A stretch of DNA of 64,000 bases, taken from NCBI GenBank assembly GCA_037308085.1, contig CP147779.1:1120001-1184000 (forward strand). Direction: 5' to 3'. This document shows positions 36,795-62,532 of this stretch, one piece after another. Numbering within the stretch: position 1 is the stretch's first letter; each line of letters opens with the position of its first letter. The notes beneath the pieces are model-generated. The model did not search any database, was not told where the DNA came from, and was given only the letters and a program-made list of their open reading frames with translations. The DNA is from Promethearchaeati archaeon SRVP18_Atabeyarchaeia-1 (lineage in GTDB: Archaea; Asgardarchaeota; Atabeyarchaeia; Atabeyarchaeales; Atabeyarchaeaceae). The position numbers and the translations under genes were made by a program.

Positions 36795-37220
36795 CTAGTC
36801 TGCGGGAACGAAGACGTACTTGACTCCCATCTCGGGTGATTCCACGAACTCTATTCTCAGCTTCATTCCTACTTTCACATCTTCTGGCTTGATGTCCTTA
36901 AGCCATGTCATGGTTGCTGGTCCTTCGCTGAGTTTCACGACCCCAATTGTGTAGGTCCCGTACTTTGTGTAACTTTCAGGAGGCGTCGTGTTGACGGTGA
37001 ATGTCGCTAGCTCACCTTCACCACCAAACTCGATCCAATCCATTTCGTCTGAGAGGCACTTAGCGCAGTCGGCGCGAGGTGGGAAGTAGCTCGTGCCACA
37101 TTTCTTGCATTTCGTACCCATGAGCTTGTGCTCTTTCAGAGCTTCGAAGAACTTTGTGACTTTCGTGTTAAATGGCTGGGAGGGCTGTTGCCCGCCTACC
37201 GATGGTTGAGATTTTGACAT
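36795..37220 (-). CDS. DUF35 Zn-ribbon/OB-fold protein
   Basis: CKKCG..FPPRADCAKC plus OB-fold. Confidence 0.92.
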   Translation of the reverse strand: MSKSQPSVGGQQPSQPFNTKVTKFFEALKEHKLMGTKCKKCGTSYFPPRADCAKCLSDEMDWIEFGGEGELATFTVNTTPPESYTKYGTYTIGVVKLSEGPATMTWLKDIKPEDVKVGMKLRIEFVESPEMGVKYVFVPAD

Positions 37221-37233
37221 TTCTTTTTCCACC

Positions 37234-38409
37234 TCACCTTGTGTAGATATGTACGTATGCGTACTGTCCCGTGGCTCCAACGTTGTGCGTCAATCCATAC
37301 TCGGCTTTTTGAACTTGCCGCCCTTCGTCGGCTTCTCCACGCAGTTGCTTAGTTATTTCGACAGCCATGCTGATTCCAGTTGCCCCGATCGGATGACCCT
37401 TTGCCTTAAGTCCTCCATCGACATTGGTTGGGAGTCTTCCTCCAACGTAAGTCTGTCCTTCTTCTACGAACTTACCCCCATCACCCTTCTTGACGAACCC
37501 AAGATCCTCAAGCGCCATTATCTCTGCTATGGTGAAGCAGTCATGAACATCGGCCACATTTATCTCTCTTGGCTCAACCTTGGCCATCTTGAAAGCCTGC
37601 TTTCCAGCTTCGACAGCTGAGTTTACACCGACGTAACTTGGCTTGGCAGCAAAGTACTCTGCTTCACTGGCGCATCCGAGCCCAGTTAGCCATATTGGTG
37701 TGTCGCAGATCTTCTTTGCAACATTCGCGGAAGCTAGTATCGCGGCGGCAGCTCCGTCAGTAATCAGTGAGCAGTCATATAGCTTCAGAGGTGACGCTAT
37801 GACCCTTGACTTCATTACCTCTTCAAGCGAAACTGCTTTCTGCATATGGGCATACGGATTCAATGCACCGTACTTGTGGCTTTTCACTGCAACCTTTGCC
37901 AGCTGCTCTTCAGTAGTTCCAAACTCATGCATGTGTCGCCTCGCCATAAGCGCGTAGTAGCCTGGGAAGGTTGTGCCCCACCACGCGAACTCCCACTGTG
38001 CGTCGCCTCCTCTTCCAAGAGCCTCTACCGCCTTTGCGGTTGGAACTTCATTCATCTTCTCAAAGCCGAGAACCATCACTATGTCTGCCAGTCCTGAGAG
38101 TATCGTGCCATAAGCGACCCTGATCGCTGCGCTGCCTGTGGCACAAGCAGCTTCGACTCTCATTGATCCTTGTGGATTCACTCCAACGTAGTCTGCAGCG
38201 GCAGCTGCCGGCGATAGCTGACCATTCAGGAATTCGGCGCCAGCGACTCCTATCACTGAATACTGAATGTCCTTTGGAGCCAAACCGCTGTCCTCAAACG
38301 CGTGTCTTGTTGCTTCGAAACAGAGCTCACGGTAAGAGGCGTCCATTCTTTTGCCGAACTTAGATTGACCAACGCCAACAATTGCAACTTTCTTTTCTCC
38401 TTTACCCAT
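37234..38409 (-). CDS. Thiolase (archaeal acetyl-CoA acetyltransferase)
   Basis: EAACATG, HDCF, GHPIGATG, HNVG. Confidence 0.94.
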   Translation of the reverse strand: MGKGEKKVAIVGVGQSKFGKRMDASYRELCFEATRHAFEDSGLAPKDIQYSVIGVAGAEFLNGQLSPAAAAADYVGVNPQGSMRVEAACATGSAAIRVAYGTILSGLADIVMVLGFEKMNEVPTAKAVEALGRGGDAQWEFAWWGTTFPGYYALMARRHMHEFGTTEEQLAKVAVKSHKYGALNPYAHMQKAVSLEEVMKSRVIASPLKLYDCSLITDGAAAAILASANVAKKICDTPIWLTGLGCASEAEYFAAKPSYVGVNSAVEAGKQAFKMAKVEPREINVADVHDCFTIAEIMALEDLGFVKKGDGGKFVEEGQTYVGGRLPTNVDGGLKAKGHPIGATGISMAVEITKQLRGEADEGRQVQKAEYGLTHNVGATGQYAYVHIYTR

Positions 38410-38784
38410 TATACGTTTCACCTGCCAAAACTGTTCTTTCTGCACATTCAACAGAAGCCGTAACCGTATTTCCGATTGATATAAAGACAACTGGAGAGCA
38501 AGTATATATTTCTTGACATTCCCGCCTTGCCGTAAAAAAGTCCTCGGGTCGTGGAAGATTCAGACTGGTTTCTTCGCGAATGCCTTTCTATCGCTTGGAA
38601 AAACGAGATGGATAGACCACACCCCTTCACTAGTTCAACATAAGCCAACAATGCGGCTGAGCTGCGGCGGACCTATTATTTCTGATCAAAACTTAAATAC
38701 GTCTTCAAAGTTTTAAGTGATAATTGGGATCATAGAATATGGAAATCATGGCAAAATTGCTTTTTTGTAAGAAGGTGATTATGA

Positions 38785-42042: not shown

Positions 42043-42552
42043 CTAAGACTTCGCTGGTCGTTTGTAACTGTTTCTCGAGAAGAGTTCTTCAAAACTCTTG
42101 CGAGGTCTTGCAGGAGGGTCCTGATCTGGTGCGCCGAGCGCCAAAATCCCAGCGACAACGGATTCCTTGGGTATGTCTAGCGATTGCTTTACACTATCGT
42201 CGTCGAACGCGCCGACCCAGACTCCCTTGAGTCCGGCTTCATAAGCAGCCAGCATGATCAATGTAAGCGCAATAGCGGTGTCAATGACGTGCCATCTCGG
42301 TGACCTCTTTGGATCTGCAACGCCAACTACAAGAAGAGGGGCTTTCGCCAAGTTTGGTTGCCCCGACGCCTTAGCGATCAGATTCAGTTTTTCTGGGTCA
42401 TCGACAAGCACAAACCGGTACGGCTGCCAATTCACGGCTGATGGTGCTTGCTGTGCAGCTTCCATTATGATGTCTAGCTGCTTCTTTTCGACTGGCTTGC
42501 TCTTCCACTTCCTAACACTTCTTCTCGATCTTATGATATCCATCACGGTCAA
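42043..42552 (-). CDS. Nitroreductase-family protein
   Basis: RRSVRKW, APSAVNWQP, DTAIA. Confidence 0.92.
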   Translation of the reverse strand: MTVMDIIRSRRSVRKWKSKPVEKKQLDIIMEAAQQAPSAVNWQPYRFVLVDDPEKLNLIAKASGQPNLAKAPLLVVGVADPKRSPRWHVIDTAIALTLIMLAAYEAGLKGVWVGAFDDDSVKQSLDIPKESVVAGILALGAPDQDPPARPRKSFEELFSRNSYKRPAKS

Positions 42553-42623: not shown

Positions 42624-43562
42624 CTACGGTTTAGGTACCGCTAGGTCACTAGCTCCGCTTTCAGACAACCTTCCTTCGGGGTAGTTCTTCTCGATTATTC
42701 CATGGATTATCTCAGCGAACTTTACCTTCTCCCTGGCCTGGAACGCCAAGGCGTCAGGGCTGACCCATGGTCTGTAGGTTGAACCTATGTTGGAACCAGG
42801 CTCGATCTTAAAGTAGACAGGGCTGCAGACTCTGACTATCTCCGGGCAGTCGTAGAACCTGTTGAACCCACCAAAGGAGTCGAACAATATGGCAAATATG
42901 TCTAGTGGTATGTCGCATGCGCTTCTAAGTGAACCCAACTGGGGTAGTGAGAGATCTGCCAGTGGGTTGAAAGTATCAGCTCCGAGTGACTCGAGTAGTT
43001 TTGCGCTTGCTGGTGAGGCATGTCCGGCAAAGACCGAAACCTTGAATTTCACTTCCTTGGGGATCTCACCGATCCTCTTCAGTTCTTTTAGAAGCCACAG
43101 AAGCCCCTCGTCAATGACCAAGAATCCTCTGAAGCCTACCTCTATGAGTTTCTTTATCTCGTAGACGACATAGGAGAGCTGGTCAGCGCCCCTAAACCTC
43201 ATCCCTGAGAGAACCCCTTCGGGCGTAGCTATCTGCCTGCCAGTGTCCCAGAGTGATCTCGGTCCCGGTGTCGCTATGACCTCTATCTTAGCAGCCGCGG
43301 CGAGCTCAGCAAACTCCTCAAGCTCCTTCTCAGACAGTAGCGTCGCACCCATGACCATGCCTATAACTCTGTGAACTGGGACATCTCTCTTCTCAGACTC
43401 GTCTATCAGAGCCTCCAAGGTAGATGGACGTTCAATGCCGCTGATCTCGATTCGATAATTGCATCCGTCTGGGAAACTCTTCTTGCTCTTGGTGAGCTCG
43501 TAAAGATCTCTCCCTGGTATCCCAAGCTTCTGAAAAGCGTTACGCACATCATCAATATTCAA
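42624..43562 (-). CDS. TIM-barrel protein of the U32-like family (function unknown)
   Basis: FPDG..YRIEI, GFRGFLV.DEGLL, FK.SV..GH; GGAGGGTGA upstream of TTG 43562. Confidence 0.65.
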   Translation of the reverse strand: MNIDDVRNAFQKLGIPGRDLYELTKSKKSFPDGCNYRIEISGIERPSTLEALIDESEKRDVPVHRVIGMVMGATLLSEKELEEFAELAAAAKIEVIATPGPRSLWDTGRQIATPEGVLSGMRFRGADQLSYVVYEIKKLIEVGFRGFLVIDEGLLWLLKELKRIGEIPKEVKFKVSVFAGHASPASAKLLESLGADTFNPLADLSLPQLGSLRSACDIPLDIFAILFDSFGGFNRFYDCPEIVRVCSPVYFKIEPGSNIGSTYRPWVSPDALAFQAREKVKFAEIIHGIIEKNYPEGRLSESGASDLAVPKP

Positions 43563-43655: not shown

Positions 43656-45119
43656 ATGGGCGTTCATATTGAGAATCCTCGCACACTAGTATTGGTGAGG
43701 ATAAGCTCCTATCCAGCGCGGATGTGGCGAGGAAGGGACAAGCCACCAATGAAGGCCACGGCGGAGAAGCCACTGAAGAGCATGGCCGCCGAACCCATGA
43801 ACCCGGAACCCTCCGAGAACGAGAACCTGCAAAAACAGGGGTTGTTGAAGGCGCTAAGAACCTACTCGCTGAGCTGTAACCAGGGCGAAGCACTCAGCGG
43901 TCTGACGTCTGCATATAACTCCACCCTCAACGAGATGCTACAGCGCATCTGGGGAACAATGCAGTGGAGGAAGCACCAGATCAAGGGCAAGAAGCAGCAG
44001 AGGCTCTACCCCGCCTACAGGAAGGACAACGCCTTCAAGCGCGGGCTGAGAGACACATGCCTTGAAGGGTGGGTCTACGCTGCGCACTGGGTTGACTCTT
44101 CCCCGAAGACCGCCTTCAGCATCATGTCCTCCTGGAAGAGAAACTATGAGAAGGGTGAGAGGAGGAGGAGGTGCCCACGTGCAGGGAGGCTCTTCCTGCG
44201 GGCAAAGCAGACCCTCCTCAAACTTGAAGACGAGAAACTGAGGGTCACCGTGAAGTCGCGCGAGTTCGTTTACATCGATCTCTCCAGGCGCTACTTCAAG
44301 CTGCCTGGTAGTGTGTCCTCCGCGGGCATAGGTGAACCCGTCATCACACCCGATAGAATACACCTGCCCATCCACGTACCGGAAGAGCCTCGGAAGAGGC
44401 CCGCGGAGGCGGTGGCGTGGGACTCGAACATGCTCAGCATGGATGGCTACGGTCCTGAGACTGGTTGGGTGAAGATTGATACGAGGAGGCTCGCCTCCGT
44501 CCACATCTCGGCCTTCGAGAAGAGGCGCAGCGTGCAGAGAAAGGCCTCAAAGTCGAAGAAGGCGAAGAGCACCCTCACAAAATACGGGAGAAGGGAAAGG
44601 GACCGCGCCAAGAAGCGGCAGGTGGAGATAGCGAGGGTGATGCGCTCCCTATCTGGGAGAAACGGCTTCGAGGAGCTTCGCAAGGAGCGGCTCTACTCCA
44701 AGTCGAGACTGTGGAACAGGCGAGTAGCACGCACGGACTGGCGCGGAATAAGGAGACTCGCGGACGGCGTTGAGGTGCCTCAACAGTTTACCTCGAAGAC
44801 CTGCTCCAGATGCGGGTGGACCAACAAAGACCTAAGAAGAGGGGCAGCAGTCTTCGAGTGCGGGAACTGTGGCCTTCGAATTGACAGGCAGCTCAACGCC
44901 GCCATCAACCTCTACCTGAGGATGGAGGGCGTTCCCCACGAGAAGGAACGATGGGATGCGAGCATCCTGCAGTCGCTTTTTGTGGGCGGGTACGTCCTGA
45001 CGGGGGCGGAGCGGAGGGGTGCCGATGAACTCGTGAGGCGCCTATATGATGCGGTGAAGCCCCAGATCTACATAGCATACGATAGGTACGCCGACGCATA
45101 CCAACCTATGCTTACGTAG
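43656..45119 (+). CDS. tnpB: TnpB (IS200/IS605 family RNA-guided nuclease-like), no TnpA; start uncertain
   Basis: AVAWDSN (RuvC-I), GFEEL (RuvC-II), TSKTCSRCG..FECGNCG, IDRQLNAAINL; visibly higher GC than flanks. Confidence 0.88.
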   Translation: MGVHIENPRTLVLVRISSYPARMWRGRDKPPMKATAEKPLKSMAAEPMNPEPSENENLQKQGLLKALRTYSLSCNQGEALSGLTSAYNSTLNEMLQRIWGTMQWRKHQIKGKKQQRLYPAYRKDNAFKRGLRDTCLEGWVYAAHWVDSSPKTAFSIMSSWKRNYEKGERRRRCPRAGRLFLRAKQTLLKLEDEKLRVTVKSREFVYIDLSRRYFKLPGSVSSAGIGEPVITPDRIHLPIHVPEEPRKRPAEAVAWDSNMLSMDGYGPETGWVKIDTRRLASVHISAFEKRRSVQRKASKSKKAKSTLTKYGRRERDRAKKRQVEIARVMRSLSGRNGFEELRKERLYSKSRLWNRRVARTDWRGIRRLADGVEVPQQFTSKTCSRCGWTNKDLRRGAAVFECGNCGLRIDRQLNAAINLYLRMEGVPHEKERWDASILQSLFVGGYVLTGAERRGADELVRRLYDAVKPQIYIAYDRYADAYQPMLT

Positions 45120-45303: not shown

Positions 45304-46797
45304 ATGAGCAAGAACTTCAAGTTATCTGGTGTAATTCCGGCACTTGTTACCCCTTTCGCGAAGGATGATGAAGAGGTAGACGAAGGAGCGCTGAAGTCGC
45401 TGATAGATTTCGTTATTAGCAAAGGGGTGACGGGTGTAGTTCCATGTGGAACTACGGGCGAATTTACTTCTATGTCCGACTCTGAGAAGCAGAGAGTTCT
45501 CAAGTTGACTGTCGACCATGTGAACGGCCGGGTTCCGGTAATCGCAGGCACAGGGTGTGCTGCGACTAAACAGACCATCGAGATGTCGAAATACGCGAAG
45601 AACGTTGGGGCTGATGCTGCCTTGGTCGTTACGCCCTTTTACCTAAAGCCGTCTGACCGAGGTATCTACGAGCACTACAGAAGAATCGCTGAAGCTCTCG
45701 ACGGATTCCCACTTATAATGTACAATATCCCGCAGGTCACGGGAGTCACGCTCGGATGGCCGCTGGTTGAGGATCTCGCCGAGATCGACAACATTGTAGG
45801 ACTAAAGGATAGCAGTGGTCAACTCCCCTACATGATGGCTGTGCTTGAGAAAGTGAGAGACAAGATCTTTGTGATGTGCGGACACGACGAGGTTGTCCTC
45901 CCGGCGCTTGCAGGTGGTGCCAACGGAGTCATCCTAGCATCAGCAAACGTCATCCCTGACATGTGGCTCAAGCTGTACAAGGCAGCCAAGGAGGGGAAGG
46001 TTGAGGAAGCCCGGAAAGTTCAGATGCAGATCCAGAAATTCGCCAGGATAATCGTTGGAAGCGGGGCCGTCGGAGTCAAGGAAGCGCTAAAAGCCATAGG
46101 CATCAACGCAGGGGCACCCCGTTGGCCACTATCCGTTGGAGGAGAACTATCATTCGAGAATAGGGAAGAGATTAGAATAGAACTCGAGAAATTCGGTAAG
46201 ATTGTGAAGAAGACCATAGAGTTTGAAGTCGTACCCGGAGTTCCAGTGGAAGATAGATTCGCAGCCGTCGAGATAACGCCGAAAACCATCAAGGATTTCT
46301 CACTCAAGGTGGGGGAAGCGCTGATAGACTCTGGGAGTGAGGTAGCACACATTGACGTGATGATAGGCAGAAAGGATGGCCCCGTTGGGGAAGGCTTTGC
46401 AAAAGCCAAGGCGAACCCCGCGCCTGGGCATGAAGCGCTACTCGCGGTCTTGGAACCAAACCTGCCAGTCAAGCCACCAACCCTAATCATGCCCACCGTC
46501 ACGATTAGGAACCTCAGACAAAGCCAAATGATATTCGGACCAGCTCAAGCTGGCGTAGCCAAGGGAGTGGTCGACAGCGTGGCCGATGGCATCATACCTA
46601 AGGGAGCTCTCGACGATCTTGTCATCGTGGCGAATGTGTTCGTCCACCCCTCAGCCGTCGACAGACATCGGGTATTCATTAACAACTGGAAGGCAATGAG
46701 GCAGGCCATAAGAAGGGCAATGGAGGGAAGACCAACTGCCGAGGAACTGGAGAGAGATAAGGAAGCAGCTAGGCACCCATTCAAGCACACGCCCTAG
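45304..46797 (+). CDS. Fusion: DapA/NAL-family class I aldolase + formaldehyde-activating enzyme (Fae)
   Basis: GTTGE, YNIP, KDSSG; from about 46300 VGEAL..EVAHIDVMIG.KDGPVG..PGH..LLAV..GPAQAGVAK.V.D. Confidence 0.9.
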   Translation: MSKNFKLSGVIPALVTPFAKDDEEVDEGALKSLIDFVISKGVTGVVPCGTTGEFTSMSDSEKQRVLKLTVDHVNGRVPVIAGTGCAATKQTIEMSKYAKNVGADAALVVTPFYLKPSDRGIYEHYRRIAEALDGFPLIMYNIPQVTGVTLGWPLVEDLAEIDNIVGLKDSSGQLPYMMAVLEKVRDKIFVMCGHDEVVLPALAGGANGVILASANVIPDMWLKLYKAAKEGKVEEARKVQMQIQKFARIIVGSGAVGVKEALKAIGINAGAPRWPLSVGGELSFENREEIRIELEKFGKIVKKTIEFEVVPGVPVEDRFAAVEITPKTIKDFSLKVGEALIDSGSEVAHIDVMIGRKDGPVGEGFAKAKANPAPGHEALLAVLEPNLPVKPPTLIMPTVTIRNLRQSQMIFGPAQAGVAKGVVDSVADGIIPKGALDDLVIVANVFVHPSAVDRHRVFINNWKAMRQAIRRAMEGRPTAEELERDKEAARHPFKHTP

Positions 46798-47333: not shown

Positions 47334-48749
47334 TCAGAGGGCAACAACCACTATTATATCATTGACATTGGTGCCTGTGGGGCCAGTCACTATTAGTCCG
47401 TCGCCGAGTGCTTTGAAGAAAGTGTTTGAATCATTCCTTAGAAGGTAGTCATCTATGTCCAAGTTTCTCGATCTTGAATTCACGGACGAGGAGGCGTCGA
47501 TAATCGCTCCTGCTGCCTCAGTGGGGCCGTCGATGCCGTCGGTTCCCATGGCAGCTATAGTTGCCCCGCCAACGTCTTCTATTGATCTCAACGCGGACAG
47601 AACTAGTTCTTGGTTCCTGCCGCCTTTACCGCTCCCGCGTACGGTGACAGTTGTCTCTCCTCCCATGATGACTGCCGCTGGTTTGCGAAGAGGAGAGTCA
47701 TACTTCACAATCTCCTTTGCCATCGCTCCGGCGAATTTGCCTACTTCTCTAGCTTCACCCTCCACCATTGTAGAAAGTACGAAGCTGTTCAGATTCAGCT
47801 CGCGGGCTTTTGCGTGAGCCGCGGCGCAAGCCTGCCTGTTGCTACCTATCAACACATTGTGAACACGGCTGAATGTCGGGGACCCAGGCTTGGGGGTCTC
47901 AGGAGCTTGGCCAGCTGTTCCCTTCAGCAAGTACTGTCTGGCGCTATTCGGAATATCGTTCCAGAGTTTGTGGTACCTCAGCACTCCCACCGCATTCTGG
48001 AAGGTCGTGGTGTCCGGAGCTGTTGGACCGCTAGCTATGACATCAAGGGGATCTCCCACGACATCGCTCAGTATTATTGATGCTACTTCACAGCCTTTCG
48101 AAGCGGCTTTTTCCGCGAGTCTCCCTCCTTTCACCAATGAGAAGTGCTTGCGGACTGTGTTCAACTCTCTGATGGTAACACCATGCTTCTGCAGCATCTC
48201 AATCACAGTCTGGAGTTCTTCCAGTGGAACCTCGGGAGGGGGAAGGCAGAGCAATGCAGATCCTCCTCCGGAGATCAGACATATAATAAGGTCTTCTGGA
48301 TTTGCATTATCCACGATCGAGATGATTCTCCGTGTCGCCTCTAGGCTGTCACTCTTAGGTATTGGGTGACTCGACTCGCGTAGTTCCACAAGTTTCGTGT
48401 TGAACATGTTTCGGGTTCCACGCAGAATGCTTACACAACCGCCGGCGATCTTCTCGCCCAGAAGGTTCTCGGCTTCCTCCGCCATGGCTCCGCTTGCCTT
48501 ACCTCCCCCAACGACATATATTCTTCCCGATTTCTTGATTCCAATGGTATCTTTGCCTATCCTGAGGGTTTTCCCATCTTCGGATAGTCTCAAAACCCTC
48601 CTCAGCGCAATTCTTGGATCGGAAGCTCTGACAGCTTCCTCAAGAAGTGTCAATGCTATTGTTCTTGCCTTCCTATCGGTGAATTCAGTTGTCTTTGACA
48701 ACAGATCCTCAAAGTTCTTTACAATATGATCCATCATATCGGGTGGCAC
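47334..48749 (-). CDS. Glycerate 2-kinase (MOFRL/GckA family)
   Basis: GKAS, SGGGSAL, IASGPT, GGETTV..GKGGRNQE, GTDGIDG, TGTNVND. Confidence 0.94.
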   Translation of the reverse strand: MPPDMMDHIVKNFEDLLSKTTEFTDRKARTIALTLLEEAVRASDPRIALRRVLRLSEDGKTLRIGKDTIGIKKSGRIYVVGGGKASGAMAEEAENLLGEKIAGGCVSILRGTRNMFNTKLVELRESSHPIPKSDSLEATRRIISIVDNANPEDLIICLISGGGSALLCLPPPEVPLEELQTVIEMLQKHGVTIRELNTVRKHFSLVKGGRLAEKAASKGCEVASIILSDVVGDPLDVIASGPTAPDTTTFQNAVGVLRYHKLWNDIPNSARQYLLKGTAGQAPETPKPGSPTFSRVHNVLIGSNRQACAAAHAKARELNLNSFVLSTMVEGEAREVGKFAGAMAKEIVKYDSPLRKPAAVIMGGETTVTVRGSGKGGRNQELVLSALRSIEDVGGATIAAMGTDGIDGPTEAAGAIIDASSSVNSRSRNLDIDDYLLRNDSNTFFKALGDGLIVTGPTGTNVNDIIVVVAL

Positions 48750-48794: not shown

Positions 48795-50099
48795 TCAGCT
48801 TTTCTCCTGCGAAACCATCCCCATCAGTATGGGCATCAGTTCACTGCCTTTTGACAAGATCTTTAGGCTTCCCTTGGCACATTCCCGCTCTCCAAACTTC
48901 TTCAGGCCGTCTCCTCTGATCTTATTTCCAGATATTAGGACTGGCACTGGATCATCGCTGTGACCCTTCAATGAACAGGGCGTCGAATGATCTGCTGTCA
49001 CGCAGATAACGGAATTTGGAACATCAATTATCTTGAGGAGCTTGCTGAAGAAGAGCATATCGATCTTCTCAATGATCTCCTTTTTCAAGTTCACATCTCC
49101 GTCATGCCCTGGCTCATCAGGACCCTTTATGTGTATGTAAAAGCAGTTATGTGCCTTCATGGCCTCCTTGAGTCGAGCTATCCTCAGCTCCATGTCTCCT
49201 TGAACATCCTTCGATGGCGGAGGCAATTCGAATACGTCCATTCCTGCCAATCTGCCAATGCCAATCTCCACTGGCATATCAGCTAGACAAGCAAACTTCA
49301 CGTTGTACCTCTCGTTGAGGCTGAAGAGTTGAGGGACATGATCTCCTGCATCTCTCGTCAGTACAACATTCGCCTTCTTCTTTCCATCCCTAGCTCGCCG
49401 CTCATTTACTGGATGATCCCTGAGTACAGCGATGGTCTTCTCAACGAACTCGTTAACCAGGTCAGCGGAGATCTTGGAGCTCCTCTTCCTATCAAGTGGC
49501 TCACATTTCATTAGCTTGTTCTCAGTCACCGCCTTAGCCACGCCGAGCCCATTCACGCGCGCATATGCGGAATCGGTATTAGATACGTTACCTGAAAGTG
49601 GACCTTCTCCACTTCTTATAACCAAGACGCACCGGTGACCGACCGTATTCTTGAATTCAAACACCGCAGGATGCGACTCAAGTTTGACAGTCTCGTTGAT
49701 TGACTTGCTGAGCTCTGTCGCCTCATCATTGCTTAGGTTTCTGCCGGCGCGCCGATCAATAATAGCATTTCCCTCGCCAAGGGTAGCGAAGTTGCATCGT
49801 GAGGCCAAATCGCCGTCATTGACCGCAAGTCCTGCGCCAAATGACTCAATGGGTCCCCTTCCCGTATGATACTTAAATGGATCATATCCGAGTATTGAGA
49901 TGACTGCCACGTCGCTTTCAGGTGCAACGCCCTTCCTCACTGTGTACATCAAACCGGTTCTGCCATTATTCGCCAGCTTATCCAAGTTGGGGGTGGACGC
50001 AGCTTCAAGCGGGGTTTTCCCGCCAAGTTCATCTACAGGTCGATCTCCCATTCCATCTATGCAAACATAAAACAGATTCATCACAAACAACATCTCCAA
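48795..50099 (-). CDS. apgM: 2,3-BPG-independent phosphoglycerate mutase (archaeal type)
   Basis: DGMGD..TPLEAA.TPN.D, PESD, HIKGPDEPGHDG, TADHSTP. Confidence 0.93.
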   Translation of the reverse strand: MEMLFVMNLFYVCIDGMGDRPVDELGGKTPLEAASTPNLDKLANNGRTGLMYTVRKGVAPESDVAVISILGYDPFKYHTGRGPIESFGAGLAVNDGDLASRCNFATLGEGNAIIDRRAGRNLSNDEATELSKSINETVKLESHPAVFEFKNTVGHRCVLVIRSGEGPLSGNVSNTDSAYARVNGLGVAKAVTENKLMKCEPLDRKRSSKISADLVNEFVEKTIAVLRDHPVNERRARDGKKKANVVLTRDAGDHVPQLFSLNERYNVKFACLADMPVEIGIGRLAGMDVFELPPPSKDVQGDMELRIARLKEAMKAHNCFYIHIKGPDEPGHDGDVNLKKEIIEKIDMLFFSKLLKIIDVPNSVICVTADHSTPCSLKGHSDDPVPVLISGNKIRGDGLKKFGERECAKGSLKILSKGSELMPILMGMVSQEKS

Positions 50100-56825: not shown

Positions 56826-58175
56826 CTAGAAATGTGGAATTTCGTGGAAGGCCGCATTTCTATTCGGTGCGTTGGCAGCATACTTGGTCCAGCCTGCTCT
56901 CCCGGCCTTCGGCTCTCCGGGAGTGTACAGGTATTCATTCCTCATATGCTGCCAAGAGGCGACCGCACTCACGGCAAACGGTTGACCGCAAAGGCGCAGA
57001 CCGCGCTGGAGTATCGCCAAGCTGGCGAGCCTGTCACGGTCGTAGTCCACGCCGCATTTCCCGCATCTGCTTATGACCCAAGCTGGGTGCTTCAACTTCC
57101 CACCGCAGACGGGACACTCAGATGACGTCCCCCTTGGGCTAACATACAAGGTCCTGCAACGACTCTTATACTCCACCATTCCTTGGAAGGCCGTGTAGGG
57201 CCAGCGGTTAAGGTGCATCCTCAGCTTCTTGCTCGTCCCACGTTTTTGCCCGTTTCTCCGTATACCTTTAAGGTCCTCGAAGACGAAGCTTGTGTCAGGG
57301 TTCTCCCGGACGATCTTGGTTGACAGCTTCTGCAGGGCGTCTGTGACCCTGCGCCTCTGCCTGCCCCTCGCCTCGCTGAGCTTCCTGGCTCTCTTCCCCG
57401 GGTTCCTGACGTGCAACTGGAGGCGCCTCCGCCTCCTCGAAAAGTCGTTCTGAACCCGGACTATCCCGCCAAGCGGCTCCGTGTGAGGTGGCTCAAGCTT
57501 GCCGCCGCTGACCGCAGTGTAGTCTACGCTTTGGAAGTTGAGGTCTGAGCCTGCTCGCCTCCTGCCGAGAGGTTTCCCGCCGCTGGCCCCGACCAGGAAT
57601 GTGACCGCCAGTTTCCTGTCGGTGAGCAGGATCTCGGAGACCCTCCCCGCGCTGCTGTACTCGCTCCACTTCTTGTGGCTCGGGGTGAACGTGATGTACT
57701 CGTAGGTGAAGGGCTTCAAGGTCACCCTGACGGTCACAGCTCCATCCGGGTTCGCCATGGCCCGGAAGAGTTCGGAGTCAATCCTCATGGCTAGCCTCCT
57801 GGCTCGTGGTAAGCCGAGCTTCTTGTTGCGCTTCCTGTACGCCCTGAGTAAAGCTACGGCGGTTCTGCAGACCGGGTTGATGTGGTGCCTGGCGTAGCCG
57901 CCATACGCTGAGTCGAACCAGGGCTTCACCTTCCTTCTCAGTAGGATTGGGTTGGGCACCAGGCCGCTGATATCGGCCAGGGCGTACGCGTGGGCTAGAG
58001 CCTCGTTCAGCGCGTTCCTCATGTCTTCGAGGTACTTGAGGATGGCGTGAGAGGGCTCGTACCTGACCGCGATGGTTCTCTTCTCGCCTTCTCCAGCCTT
58101 CCACCCATGGTGCTTCCCTTGATGCGCCAGCACCGGCGCGGCAGCTGCGCCAGTCTTAGCGCGGGCCCGAAGCAA
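56826..58175 (-). CDS. tnpB: TnpB (IS200/IS605 family), intact D-E-D triad, no TnpA
   Basis: GSDLN, VFEDL, NRWPY..VEYKS, TSSECPVCG..CGKCG, DRDRLA; high GC. Confidence 0.9.
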   Translation of the reverse strand: MLRARAKTGAAAAPVLAHQGKHHGWKAGEGEKRTIAVRYEPSHAILKYLEDMRNALNEALAHAYALADISGLVPNPILLRRKVKPWFDSAYGGYARHHINPVCRTAVALLRAYRKRNKKLGLPRARRLAMRIDSELFRAMANPDGAVTVRVTLKPFTYEYITFTPSHKKWSEYSSAGRVSEILLTDRKLAVTFLVGASGGKPLGRRRAGSDLNFQSVDYTAVSGGKLEPPHTEPLGGIVRVQNDFSRRRRRLQLHVRNPGKRARKLSEARGRQRRRVTDALQKLSTKIVRENPDTSFVFEDLKGIRRNGQKRGTSKKLRMHLNRWPYTAFQGMVEYKSRCRTLYVSPRGTSSECPVCGGKLKHPAWVISRCGKCGVDYDRDRLASLAILQRGLRLCGQPFAVSAVASWQHMRNEYLYTPGEPKAGRAGWTKYAANAPNRNAAFHEIPHF

Positions 58176-59548: not shown

Positions 59549-61012
59549 ATGTTTGCGAAGAAACTTAAGTGTATCTACTGCGGAGAAGAGTATGACATAC
59601 CGCGGGATGGGGAAGATCCGCGACTGGACAACAAGTTGATGTGTCCAAAGTGCGTGGGTATTCACAAGTGGATCTATGGGTCGCTAGATGTCGTGTACGA
59701 TTATGACGAGATCCGTGAACACGTGGATCTCAAGAAGCTTTTTGATTTTGATTTTCAGATAGACACGATGTGGGGCTTCAAGGATCTCCTCCCGATCAGG
59801 AGACAGGCCGTAAGCCTAGGTGAAGGGGATACACCTTTCTATACGTGCGAGAGGATTTGCCAGGAACTTGATGTGTCAAATCTCTACCTGAAACATGAAG
59901 GTGCCAACCCTACAGGGTCGTTCAAGGATAGGGAATCGGCAGTCTGTGTCTCACGCGGTCTCGAGATTGGAGCCAAGGGAGTCACGTGCATATCATCGGG
60001 GAATGCGGCAGGATCTCTGGCTGCATATGCCTCACGGGCCGGGCTGAAATGCCTTGTTTTCACGCCCAGTAGTGCTTCTCCTGAGAAGATGACTCAGATA
60101 GGGATATTCGATGCGGAGCTCATTGCAGTTGACGGTATCCTCGAGGACGTGTGGGAGCTCATAAACAGAGATCCCAATGGTGTGGAAGACGACCAACTTC
60201 TGAAGCTAGTTGGCATGACGTATAGATACTACTATGACTGCAACGCAGCCCTCAACCCCTACAGAGTCGAAGGGGATAAGACCGAAGCGTACGAGATCTA
60301 CAAAGGAATGAAGGACGTGCCGGACTGGGTTGTAGTTCCGACGGGGAACGGCAGTAACCTTGCTGGTATTTGGAAAGGATTCAAAGAGATGTATGTCCTG
60401 GGCATCATCGACCGGTTACCAAAACTCATCTGTGTTCAGGTCAAAGGCGGAGATCCGATCGCCAAGGCGTTTGAGCAGAAAAAGGATTACTCAATCAGAA
60501 TCGATAATCCGCCTGACTCGATAGCTGAAGGCATAGTTGCGAGGGATTGCTACGACGCGACAAAAGCCCTTCGCGCGCTCAAAGAATCCAATGGGATAAC
60601 TGTAGCCGTCGACGATCTTGAAGTCATCGAGTATATGGAGCTCCTCGCAGGAAAAGAGGGCGTGTTCGTGGAGCCGACATCCGCAACATCATTGGCTGCT
60701 GTAGGAAAGCTAAGGGAGACATACGCACTTGACAAGTCTGACCGCATAGTCTGTGTGCTTACTGGGTCAGGTCTCAAGGCGACTAAGGAAGTCATGGTTA
60801 AGTGTAAGAAAGAAGTCAAGCCAATTGACAAAGTCAAGAAGAATGATTACTCTACACTTATCAGAGACATAGCAAAAGTAGCCAAGAAGCAATTTCCATC
60901 ACTTCAGATCCCCCTGCCTAGCTCCATTGCACCTGAAGCAGCAACGAAACCTGCCAATGGATCTTCAAGTAGAAGCGGTGCAGCGAACAACTCATCAAAT
61001 CACAGGCAATAG
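59549..61012 (+). CDS. thrC: Threonine synthase-like PLP enzyme
   Basis: SLGEGDTP, NPTGSFKDR, SSGNAA.S, PTGNG, EPTSA, LTGSGLK. Confidence 0.85.
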   Translation: MFAKKLKCIYCGEEYDIPRDGEDPRLDNKLMCPKCVGIHKWIYGSLDVVYDYDEIREHVDLKKLFDFDFQIDTMWGFKDLLPIRRQAVSLGEGDTPFYTCERICQELDVSNLYLKHEGANPTGSFKDRESAVCVSRGLEIGAKGVTCISSGNAAGSLAAYASRAGLKCLVFTPSSASPEKMTQIGIFDAELIAVDGILEDVWELINRDPNGVEDDQLLKLVGMTYRYYYDCNAALNPYRVEGDKTEAYEIYKGMKDVPDWVVVPTGNGSNLAGIWKGFKEMYVLGIIDRLPKLICVQVKGGDPIAKAFEQKKDYSIRIDNPPDSIAEGIVARDCYDATKALRALKESNGITVAVDDLEVIEYMELLAGKEGVFVEPTSATSLAAVGKLRETYALDKSDRIVCVLTGSGLKATKEVMVKCKKEVKPIDKVKKNDYSTLIRDIAKVAKKQFPSLQIPLPSSIAPEAATKPANGSSSRSGAANNSSNHRQ

Positions 61013-61047: not shown

Positions 61048-62532
61048 CTAAGTTATGTTGTAGACTGGCGCCGTAGGTATCATATTATAGTTGCTTGAAA
61101 GTGCCTGCTGGTAGGCGCCGACGTCTAGAACCATGAGGATGTCTCCTTTCTCAGTTCTCGGTAGTCTCCTTGGACCAGTGCGGTCTCGTCCCCATGCGAA
61201 AACATCCCCGGAATCACAGGCTATCCCACCAATATTGTAAAGACCCTCCGAGGGCTTGCCTATTTTCGAGGCATTTAGGATCTCGAACCACTGTTGAAGC
61301 AGGACAACGTCATGTGTGTCAGTCATTGCGCTTCCATCAGTGATGATCCACTTGTCGGATCCTTTGAGCGAACCCCTGAAATCATTGAGCACGTCGAAGG
61401 TATCCGTAACGGTAAGTACAAGCGCCGTTGAGTTGGCGACCAGCCATCTTCCAGGCTCCAGGCATAACTCCGGGTAGTCCCCTCCCTCATCTTCGTAGAT
61501 CCTAGTTAGGGTGGAAGTGACCTCAGATGCATATTCCTCTATATCATAGCTGGGCCAGAACTCTCCATATTCCTCGATGTCTGTCGGCTCAGTCTTAACA
61601 TATTTCACGGCGACGCCTCCCCCAATGTTGACCTGTTCTATGTGGACCCCGAGCTTCTGCTCAAGTTCGAGTGCCTTTGAGCATAAGATCGGTATCATTC
61701 CCCGGCTATCATCCTCGTGCTCCCCAGCTACCCCTAATAACGCGTCTAGGTTTGATATCTGGGAACCAATATGGGAGTGTAGCTGAACGACCCTGAGGTC
61801 GCCACTTCCTTTAATCTCTCTTACGATATCCACAGTGTTTTCGAGCGGAACCCCGAACCTCGTATAGCCAGCGCCAGTCGCTAGGTCTTCGGCAGTCCTT
61901 GGTCTTATTGCTGGGTTGACCCGAACACCAACACGCACTCCGCCACCGAGCTTGTGTGCGATCTTGGCCGCAAATCTGGCTTCTTCAGCCGAGGACAGAT
62001 TGACGATCACATTGTACCCATCCTTTAGCTGGCTTCTAAAGGCGACTTCAATAAGTGATTCCTTGTATGGACGTTGCGCATAATGTTTCGAAACCCCATT
62101 ACAGGTAATCTGAGGCTTCTCTTTTCCGGTTGCGTCCTCCTTCAGGAGGCTCAAAGAGTAGATAAGCTCATGAATATTCGTGACTTCGGTCCCAAAACCT
62201 TCTCTCACCATTCGCTCTGCGACAGGTTGAAGCGGGTTTGCCTTCACCGCGTAGGATGGACTAAACTTGCCAGGGTACTCTCTGAATGAGCGAACAAGGC
62301 GCTTGGCGTTGCCCGTGACTTGTTTCAAATCGACCAGATACTGACGAGTTCCACGTTCGCGAACAAAATCCAGAACGTCAACGCCGCCAAAAGTGACACT
62401 CCCACCCGGTGTGAGTCTCAGGCTCTCCGCAAGGTTCTTCTTTCCTATGTAAACAGAAGGATCAACTTGGCAGACGGCATCCAGTTGAGTGGCATGAGTC
62501 AAATCTGGTGCAGACCTCCAACTGAAAAACAA
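61048..62532 (-). CDS. Group IV PLP decarboxylase (LysA/diaminopimelate decarboxylase family); likely start TTG 62502
   Basis: YAVKAN, RFG, HSHIGSQ, NIGGG, EPGR, CDSGD, GAY. Confidence 0.85.
   Translation of the reverse strand: MFFSWRSAPDLTHATQLDAVCQVDPSVYIGKKNLAESLRLTPGGSVTFGGVDVLDFVRERGTRQYLVDLKQVTGNAKRLVRSFREYPGKFSPSYAVKANPLQPVAERMVREGFGTEVTNIHELIYSLSLLKEDATGKEKPQITCNGVSKHYAQRPYKESLIEVAFRSQLKDGYNVIVNLSSAEEARFAAKIAHKLGGGVRVGVRVNPAIRPRTAEDLATGAGYTRFGVPLENTVDIVREIKGSGDLRVVQLHSHIGSQISNLDALLGVAGEHEDDSRGMIPILCSKALELEQKLGVHIEQVNIGGGVAVKYVKTEPTDIEEYGEFWPSYDIEEYASEVTSTLTRIYEDEGGDYPELCLEPGRWLVANSTALVLTVTDTFDVLNDFRGSLKGSDKWIITDGSAMTDTHDVVLLQQWFEILNASKIGKPSEGLYNIGGIACDSGDVFAWGRDRTGPRRLPRTEKGDILMVLDVGAYQQALSSNYNMIPTAPVYNIT

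Follow-up and report, generated by a model that had tools for sequence, protein, structure and literature searches.

A fusion of a DapA-like aldolase with formaldehyde-activating enzyme in Asgard archaea and Bathyarchaeia: a candidate link between C1 metabolism and homoserine

The window analysed here is a stretch of 64,000 nucleotides from the genome of Promethearchaeati archaeon SRVP18_Atabeyarchaeia-1 (assembly GCA_037308085.1, contig CP147779.1, positions 1,120,001 to 1,184,000 of the forward strand); coordinates are those of the window unless given as genome positions. At 45304–46797 on the plus strand lies a gene for a protein of 497 amino acids (aa), P0001, in which a class I aldolase of the DHDPS/NAL type is joined to a complete formaldehyde-activating enzyme (Fae). 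P0001 is probably a 2-oxo-acid aldolase that is coupled to formaldehyde and tetrahydromethanopterin (H4MPT). Here we describe this fusion, its family, its genomic company and the reaction that we propose for it.

Architecture and conservation of the fusion

The gene is a single open reading frame that opens with ATG and runs for 497 codons without a stop, on a stretch in which the opposite strand is stop-rich. Pfam places DHDPS (PF00701) at residues 7–277 (E 1.2e-81) and Fae (PF08714) at residues 336–493, covering profile positions 1–158 of 159 (E 8.3e-60). The protein exceeds the NCBIfam cut-offs for both dapA (TIGR00674, 248.7 bits; cut-off 206) and one_C_fae (TIGR03126, 211.8 bits; cut-off 118), and its aldolase half also matches the NCBIfam models for NAL, KDG aldolase and KdgD. 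From Pfam, NCBIfam, alignments and model superposition, we delimit the aldolase domain as residues 1–300 (45304–46203). It is followed by a structured linker, residues 301–333 (46204–46302), and by the Fae domain, residues 336–493 (46309–46782), which is supported by PF08714, TIGR03126 and an alignment with the solved structure 1Y5Y. An AlphaFold2 (AF2) model of the monomer, built with 27 family members as input, reached a pLDDT of 88 and a pTM of 0.85. In this model the linker is a predicted beta-hairpin joining both domains (strands 303–310 and 313–319, pLDDT 86–91), and the aldolase half superposes on DHDPS structures such as 2yxg with a root-mean-square deviation of 1.6 Å and a TM score, by target, of 0.95.

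Among solved structures, the N-terminal half is closest to genuine DHDPS enzymes; the one from M. jannaschii (2yxg) matches with E 7.7e-55 and approximately 38% identity. The motifs GTTGEF (49–54), YNIPQVTG (140–147) and KDSSG (168–172) mark the aldolase half, and AHID (348–351) the Fae half. Residues K168, Y140, T50/T51 and Y113 align with the DHDPS set Lys161/Tyr133/Thr44/Tyr107 and are kept in 24–27 of 27 fusions; the Schiff-base lysine itself, Lys168 of KDSSG (codon 45805–45807), aligns with the catalytic Lys of DHDPS and is present in 26 of 27. All catalytic residues of the solved enzymes are thus matched except the Arg of YNVPxRT. Val145 (codon 45736–45738) stands opposite that Arg (‘ynvpsRt/ynvpgRt’) in HMMER alignments with 2yxg and 3pud; in DHDPS this residue, Arg138, binds the aspartate semialdehyde carboxylate. 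The Fae half can be aligned with the solved Fae of M. extorquens (1Y5Y, E 1.7e-39) along 162 residues with no gap, and contains the core motifs of that enzyme (EVAHID, GPAQ and the C-terminal HPF). A preliminary description of this locus, made from the sequence alone, had reported one reading frame with a class I aldolase and a full Fae domain and had noted that YNIPQVT lacks the DHDPS Arg; both observations, and all of the motifs it quoted, are borne out by these searches.

The best 120 matches to P0001 among 5.8 billion proteins are all two-domain proteins of around 492–511 aa, mostly from Bathyarchaeia; the closest named relatives are those of Candidatus Atabeyarchaeum deiterrae (85% identity). 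The family comprises approximately 15 clusters at 50% identity, a subset of which has a degenerate Fae half, and it is conserved at 62–66% across phyla with a single-copy, housekeeping-like distribution. In 27 intact fusions the Arg138 column is occupied by Val (14), Cys (11), Leu (1) or Tyr (1) and never by Arg; of the 122 closest stand-alone homologues, 62 have Arg there. Trp152, which follows this column in the sequence, is present in 27 of 27 fusions compared with 1% of stand-alone homologues; Gln144 and Glu196 are likewise specific to the family. Invariant residues of the Fae part include His349, Asp351 and, in the HPF tail, His491 and Pro492.

Among these best 120 matches, named entries are nearly always labelled ‘4-hydroxy-tetrahydrodipicolinate synthase’ (two bear other labels), and published surveys tally the fusion as either ‘fae’ or ‘dapA’. 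In the published table for Atabeya-1, gene 1_1177, straight after the transposase gene 1_1176, carries both K01714 (DapA) and K10713 (Fae). A literature search found no paper that describes the aldolase–Fae fusion, in agreement with the preliminary description, which knew of no account of its function.

The fusion resembles Fae–Hps in logic; the fold of the partner, the order of the domains and the predicted substrate and pathway are different. In the Fae–Hps proteins of methanogens and many archaea, Fae is likewise joined to an aldolase for which formaldehyde is a product or a substrate, and C–C chemistry is thereby coupled to the H4MPT C1 pool. There, an N-terminal Fae domain precedes Hps, which has the fold of orotidine monophosphate decarboxylase, whereas the fusion has a C-terminal Fae domain behind a Schiff-base barrel of the DHDPS type. 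Fae–Hps acts on ribulose 5-phosphate in pentose phosphate metabolism, whereas the predicted substrate of the fusion is a 2-oxo acid (pyruvate), in a homoserine and threonine context. The host has a separate, true Fae–Hps gene (395 aa, genome position 439291). As a member of the Fae family (EC 4.2.1.147), the fusion has the full-length family match, the core motifs and a host that uses H4MPT. Fae enzymes are homopentamers with H4MPT bound between subunits; DHDPS barrels form dimers or tetramers. With DapA (EC 4.3.3.7) it shares the fold, the Schiff-base Lys and the catalytic Tyr and Thr residues; it differs in having mostly Val or Cys in place of Arg138, in the invariant Trp152, Gln144 and Glu196, in the additional Fae domain, and in a host with neither a source of aspartate semialdehyde nor DapB.

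Host metabolism and the link to homoserine

The host genome is complete, a single contig of 2.81 Mb. Profile searches of it gave no match for asd (TIGR00978), for homoserine dehydrogenase (Hom; Homoserine_dh) or for DapB_C; the same searches found asd, Hom and DapB in 11–14 of 14 control genomes, and the genome authors’ published table for Atabeyarchaeia-1 also lists hom 0 and asd 0. As there is no source of aspartate semialdehyde and no DapB, the fusion cannot be the DapA of the lysine pathway. Together with the family-wide loss of Arg138, the gene content makes this exclusion, already suggested in the preliminary description, essentially certain.

The preliminary description had proposed to look for a canonical dapA. 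A second DHDPS homologue of the host, the stand-alone P0121 (294 aa; genome C1:2314972-2315856, outside the window), keeps the Arg (YNNPSRAG) and has GTAGAF in place of GTTGE; its gene is flanked by one for a xylose-isomerase-like TIM barrel and by kaiC. Because the genome has neither asd nor dapB, P0121 is not a lysine-pathway DapA either. The genome has no diaminopimelate pathway, which makes diaminopimelate decarboxylase an improbable identity for the LysA-like pyridoxal-phosphate-dependent decarboxylase encoded at 61048–62532 on the minus strand (TIGR01048, 201 bits; cut-off 298); its gene is convergent with that of a ThrC-family protein described below. The H4MPT machinery on which a coupled Fae domain would depend, and which the preliminary description had wanted to see confirmed, is present: we found Mch (425 bits) and beta-RFAP synthase (164 bits; cut-off 113.5). 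The published account of these genomes describes an H4MPT Wood–Ljungdahl pathway, nearly all genes of which are expressed, and predicts that the hosts are amino-acid fermenters.

The occurrence of the fusion is anticorrelated with that of Hom in two phyla. Hom was found in 7 of 49 fusion-bearing Asgard genomes compared with 39 of 72 fusion-less ones, and in 5 of 31 compared with 69 of 90 in Bathyarchaeia. The pattern recurs within a single Asgard family (f9), in which Hom is present in 2 of 10 genomes with the fusion and in 5 of 6 without it; all 16 genomes of this family have Asd, so the fusion would replace Hom specifically. Five fusion-bearing Bathyarchaeia genomes in which Hom is missing include three single-record chromosome assemblies.

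Genomes with the fusion and without Hom are not simply auxotrophs, because they retain genes for the use of homoserine: a ThrC-family gene is present in 37 of 42 such Asgard genomes, and nine Bathyarchaeia genomes combine the fusion with a bona fide homoserine kinase in the absence of Hom. In one Hom-less Bathyarchaeon (G156), the fusion, a homoserine kinase (298 bits; cut-off 194) and a threonine synthase (376 bits; cut-off 167) follow one another on one strand, and thrB and thrC overlap. The fusion therefore occupies the place of hom in classical operons. In the complete genome CP070679, a threonine synthase gene lies 3.4 kb downstream of the fusion. The window itself contains the sole threonine-synthase-family gene of the host genome (59549–61012, plus strand, 487 aa), the product of which matches TIGR00260 with 188 bits (cut-off 167), is 38% identical to the canonical ThrC of the G156 operon and is a candidate consumer of what the fusion pathway would supply. 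The homoserine connection drawn in the preliminary description is therefore supported by the anticorrelation with Hom in two phyla and by the fusion–thrB–thrC operon. As to its more specific forms, the evidence points to a linear biosynthetic supply of homoserine rather than to a homoserine cycle or the degradation of methionine carbon, although a catabolic direction keeps some probability.

A second gene, which the preliminary description had missed, accompanies the fusion. P0272, a 312-aa TIM-barrel protein according to its AF2 model, is encoded at 42624–43562 on the minus strand, 1.7 kb upstream of the fusion, and belongs to no known family: Pfam gave no match above the cut-off, and searches of NCBIfam and of PDB sequences yielded none; what remained was a weak similarity to U32 (E 0.014) and chance-level similarity to S13. 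Fold searches with the model returned generic TIM barrels (Foldseek TM <0.5; VIA Z 13–15 against CutC, class II aldolases, the U32 protein Mk0906, RuBisCO-like proteins and MfnB). The barrel has 2563 homologues, which are 65–70% identical across Asgard archaea, Bathyarchaeia, Aigarchaeota, Nitrososphaeria and Chloroflexi; a longer form of 419–435 aa is a distant homologue of P0272. In Asgard archaea it is present in 47 of 49 genomes with the fusion and in 20 of 72 without, and in Bathyarchaeia in 25 of 31 and 11 of 90, respectively. Of 60 Bathyarchaeal fusion loci, 57 have a barrel gene close by, usually adjacent and divergently oriented, and in five Asgard families (f8, f9, f12, f17 and f20) the two genes are immediate neighbours. 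A co-folding prediction of the fusion with the barrel scored 0.00 and gave no verdict, which is evidence neither way.

The other surroundings of the barrel are an independent line of evidence for the link to homoserine. In three fusion-less Asgard families (f4, f21 and f24; loci L124–L129), most members of which lack Asd (0 of 9 in f4), the long barrel gene stands first in a tight operon, followed by genes for an aspartate-aminotransferase-like protein, Hom and an aldehyde:ferredoxin oxidoreductase (AOR); one of these loci, L126, additionally has a PatB C–S lyase. The AOR may produce aspartate semialdehyde from aspartate without ATP, or may oxidize it during the breakdown of homoserine. In another Asgard family (f6), the barrel gene is divergent from that of threonine synthase. 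Both the fusion and its partner are thus tied to homoserine. On a Chloroflexi contig (JACRBP010000034.1, locus L132), a short barrel gene follows genes for RACo, a CooC-like ATPase and a pterin-binding methyltransferase (PF00809); in such a Wood–Ljungdahl-type setting, the barrel may act on a C1 unit carried by a pterin.

Proposed reaction and alternatives

We propose that methylene-H4MPT and formaldehyde are brought into equilibrium in the active site of the Fae domain, and that the aldolase domain forms a Schiff base and then the enamine of pyruvate on Lys168. With Arg138 replaced by a small residue and with Trp152 and Gln144 conserved, only a small neutral aldehyde would fit, and attack of the pyruvate enamine on formaldehyde would yield 4-hydroxy-2-oxobutanoate (HOB). 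An ordinary aminotransferase could convert HOB to homoserine, from which a kinase and ThrC would make threonine; methionine would probably be supplied as well. Such a route would stand in for Hom in the host and in many Asgard archaea and Bathyarchaeia, tying amino-acid synthesis to the Wood–Ljungdahl C1 pool, and the barrel partner would work in the same homoserine-centred pathway. Capture of formaldehyde by the pterin and aldol addition of formaldehyde to pyruvate are both favourable, so that the net reaction (pyruvate + methylene-H4MPT + water ⇌ HOB + H4MPT) should lie near equilibrium and its direction should be set by context. The substrates, product, channelling and direction are those that we infer from the residues and gene contexts described above.

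We assign a probability of about 0.5 to the biosynthetic direction, in which pyruvate and methylene-H4MPT give HOB and transamination gives homoserine; it is the best-supported specific reading. The broader suggestion, that the fusion and the barrel together constitute a natural route to homoserine, threonine and methionine that has no acyl-phosphate (ATP-consuming) step and replaces Hom in many Asgard archaea and Bathyarchaeia, is more tentative, and we would put it a little short of an even chance.

The proposed net reaction is that of the HOB aldolase in the synthetic homoserine cycle, in which pyruvate and formaldehyde are converted through HOB to homoserine in vivo in a growth-coupled manner. 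The engineered cycle uses free formaldehyde and promiscuous Escherichia coli enzymes, including RhmA as the aldolase, and HOB has been called non-native (review PMC8879981). Compared with RhmA, the fusion would be a dedicated, conserved natural enzyme that draws its formaldehyde from methylene-H4MPT.

Several observations weigh against a biosynthetic role. Fae normally runs towards methylene-H4MPT, which fits the cleavage direction equally well, and the published metatranscriptome table lists 0 transcripts for fae genes. Hom and the fusion occur together in 12 of 80 fusion-bearing genomes, and these phyletic counts come from related, often incomplete metagenome-assembled genomes, so that Fisher p-values overstate the associations. 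Most fusion genes stand alone or with the barrel only; a thrB or thrC neighbourhood is limited to one operon (G156) and one nearby gene (CP070679). In the host, the ThrC-family protein at 59549–61012 is a long paralogue, and the general thrC model is the only one whose cut-off it clears; profile searches recognized no GHMP homoserine kinase. The distribution of GHMP ThrB in Asgard archaea is uninformative in this respect: it was found in 10 of 121 genomes and is also missing from genomes that have Hom.

Because the net reaction is expected to lie near equilibrium, the main rival to biosynthesis is the same chemistry in reverse, in which HOB from homoserine or another source is cleaved to pyruvate and formaldehyde, and Fae traps the toxic formaldehyde as methylene-H4MPT for oxidation or acetogenesis. 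This agrees with the usual direction of Fae and the precedent of Fae–Hps, with the predicted fermentation of amino acids by the hosts and with the M24 and M20 peptidase genes that recur near the fusion. The operon of barrel, aminotransferase, Hom and AOR can be read as an oxidative path from homoserine through aspartate semialdehyde and aspartate to oxaloacetate, and two alternative sinks for homoserine would also produce an anticorrelation with Hom. Degradation sits poorly with the fusion–thrB–thrC operon in a genome without Hom, with the 62–66% cross-phylum conservation and single-copy, housekeeping-like distribution of the fusion, and with genomes that have neither Hom nor Asd, and hence no evident internal source of homoserine, yet keep ThrC. 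We consider it unlikely, although it is the foremost of the alternatives. Next to it, and also improbable in our estimation, is an aldolase with another donor or acceptor (2-oxobutanoate, hydroxypyruvate or a larger aldehyde) or with a product other than homoserine, in which case the anticorrelation with Hom would reflect the lifestyle of the lineages. The substrate is deduced solely from the lost Arg and the retained pyruvate-binding residues, enzymes of the DHDPS family have diverse substrates (as the matches to the NAL, KDG aldolase and KdgD models illustrate), the barrel belongs to no known family, and a UxaA-type dehydratase gene adjoins one Bathyarchaeal fusion. The complete and conserved Fae domain argues instead for formaldehyde as one substrate and the conserved Thr-Thr pair and Tyr for pyruvate as the other, and the evidence for homoserine was obtained along independent lines in two phyla.

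Two further roles are far less probable. PanB, as is proposed for the fusion, adds a hydroxymethyl group to a 2-oxo acid with a methylene-pterin as the donor; it is a metal-dependent enzyme that uses methylene-tetrahydrofolate directly, belongs to an unrelated Pfam family (PF02548) and stands as a single protein with no Fae domain. A fusion acting as its analogue would convert 2-oxoisovalerate and methylene-H4MPT to 2-dehydropantoate for coenzyme A. The reaction logic is the same, and the host has an archaeal pantoate kinase and phosphopantothenate synthetase and no PanB. We rejected a ketopantoate role, which we regard as very improbable, as most fusion-bearing Asgard families have PanB alongside the fusion (15 of 17 in f6, 16 of 17 in f12 and 10 of 16 in f9) and as the host genome offers a different candidate. 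Outside the window, at genome C1:1038127-1041242, genes for a pantoate-kinase-like GHMP kinase, the archaeal phosphopantothenate synthetase and a fusion of Hps with an RraA-like aldolase (453 aa; NF005442, 643 bits, cut-off 593) stand in a row, and the Hps–RraA protein, a second fusion of a formaldehyde-releasing with a class II aldolase-like enzyme, could be what forms ketopantoate in this PanB-less genome. Least credible of all is a genuine DapA, a 4-hydroxy-tetrahydrodipicolinate synthase that carries Fae as an incidental or regulatory appendage. The score above the TIGR00674 cut-off and the DHDPS identity of the closest solved structures would suit it; the family-wide absence of an essential Arg, the lack of both asd and dapB in a complete genome and the strong conservation of the Fae domain do not.

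If the biosynthetic reading is correct, certain archaea that rank among the most abundant of the subsurface would make threonine and methionine by condensing a C3 with a C1 unit rather than from aspartate, and the C1 pool would be the origin of C4 in both amino acids. HOB would join the natural metabolites, and chemistry known to date only in engineered pathways would have a natural counterpart. Thousands of database entries that read ‘4-hydroxy-tetrahydrodipicolinate synthase’ would be wrong, and reconstructions of Asgard archaea and Bathyarchaeia that infer lysine synthesis, or auxotrophy for threonine and methionine, would need to be revised. For synthetic methylotrophy, an HOB aldolase shaped by evolution, and perhaps capable of channelling, could take over from promiscuous side activities. 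The barrel partner and its operon with an aminotransferase, Hom and AOR point to further steps around homoserine.

Other genes near the fusion

Inserted between the barrel and the fusion is a gene for an IS200/605-type TnpB (43656–45119, plus strand; Pfam Cas12f1-like_TNB), the published ‘putative transposase’ 1_1176, which we treat as context only; in the sister genome A. deiterrae, a Methyltransf_24 gene takes its spot. A second TnpB gene (IS200/605, Cas12f-like) is found at 56826–58175 on the minus strand.

Convergent with the fusion is a DUF4147/MOFRL ‘glycerate 2-kinase’ gene (47334–48749, minus strand). Its product falls well short of the two glycerate-kinase equivalog cut-offs (247 versus 550 and 217 versus 670) and may have a different substrate. 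The iPGM-like gene at 48795–50099 was considered as a homoserine kinase of a proposed type and rejected: it scores 426 bits with apgM (cut-off 320) and 274 bits with TIGR02535 (cut-off 446), and is probably glycolytic given this apgM-type score and its status as the sole such gene in the genome. As partners of the fusion, the glycerate-kinase, iPGM and TrmB neighbours were set aside because their conservation is confined to Atabeyarchaeia. In Bathyarchaeia, a methyltransferase gene is co-transcribed with the fusion in 54 of 60 loci; its orthologue lies elsewhere in the host genome and the loci are closely related, and we therefore treat the association as synteny.

On the other side of the barrel, a nitroreductase-family gene (42043–42552, minus strand) directly adjoins it; in four loci of Asgard family f9, a nitroreductase homologue lies 3–5 kb from the fusion, beside a peroxiredoxin gene. 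A thiolase gene paired with one for a DUF35 (zf-ChsH2/OB) protein occupies 36795–38490 on the minus strand, within approximately 5 kb of the barrel. The association recurs across phyla (loci L030–L032 and L133–L135): the same pair occurs near the barrel in Asgard family f12 and on contigs of Aigarchaeota and Nitrososphaeria, and the latter contigs additionally have genes for Mch and for a class III aminotransferase close by.

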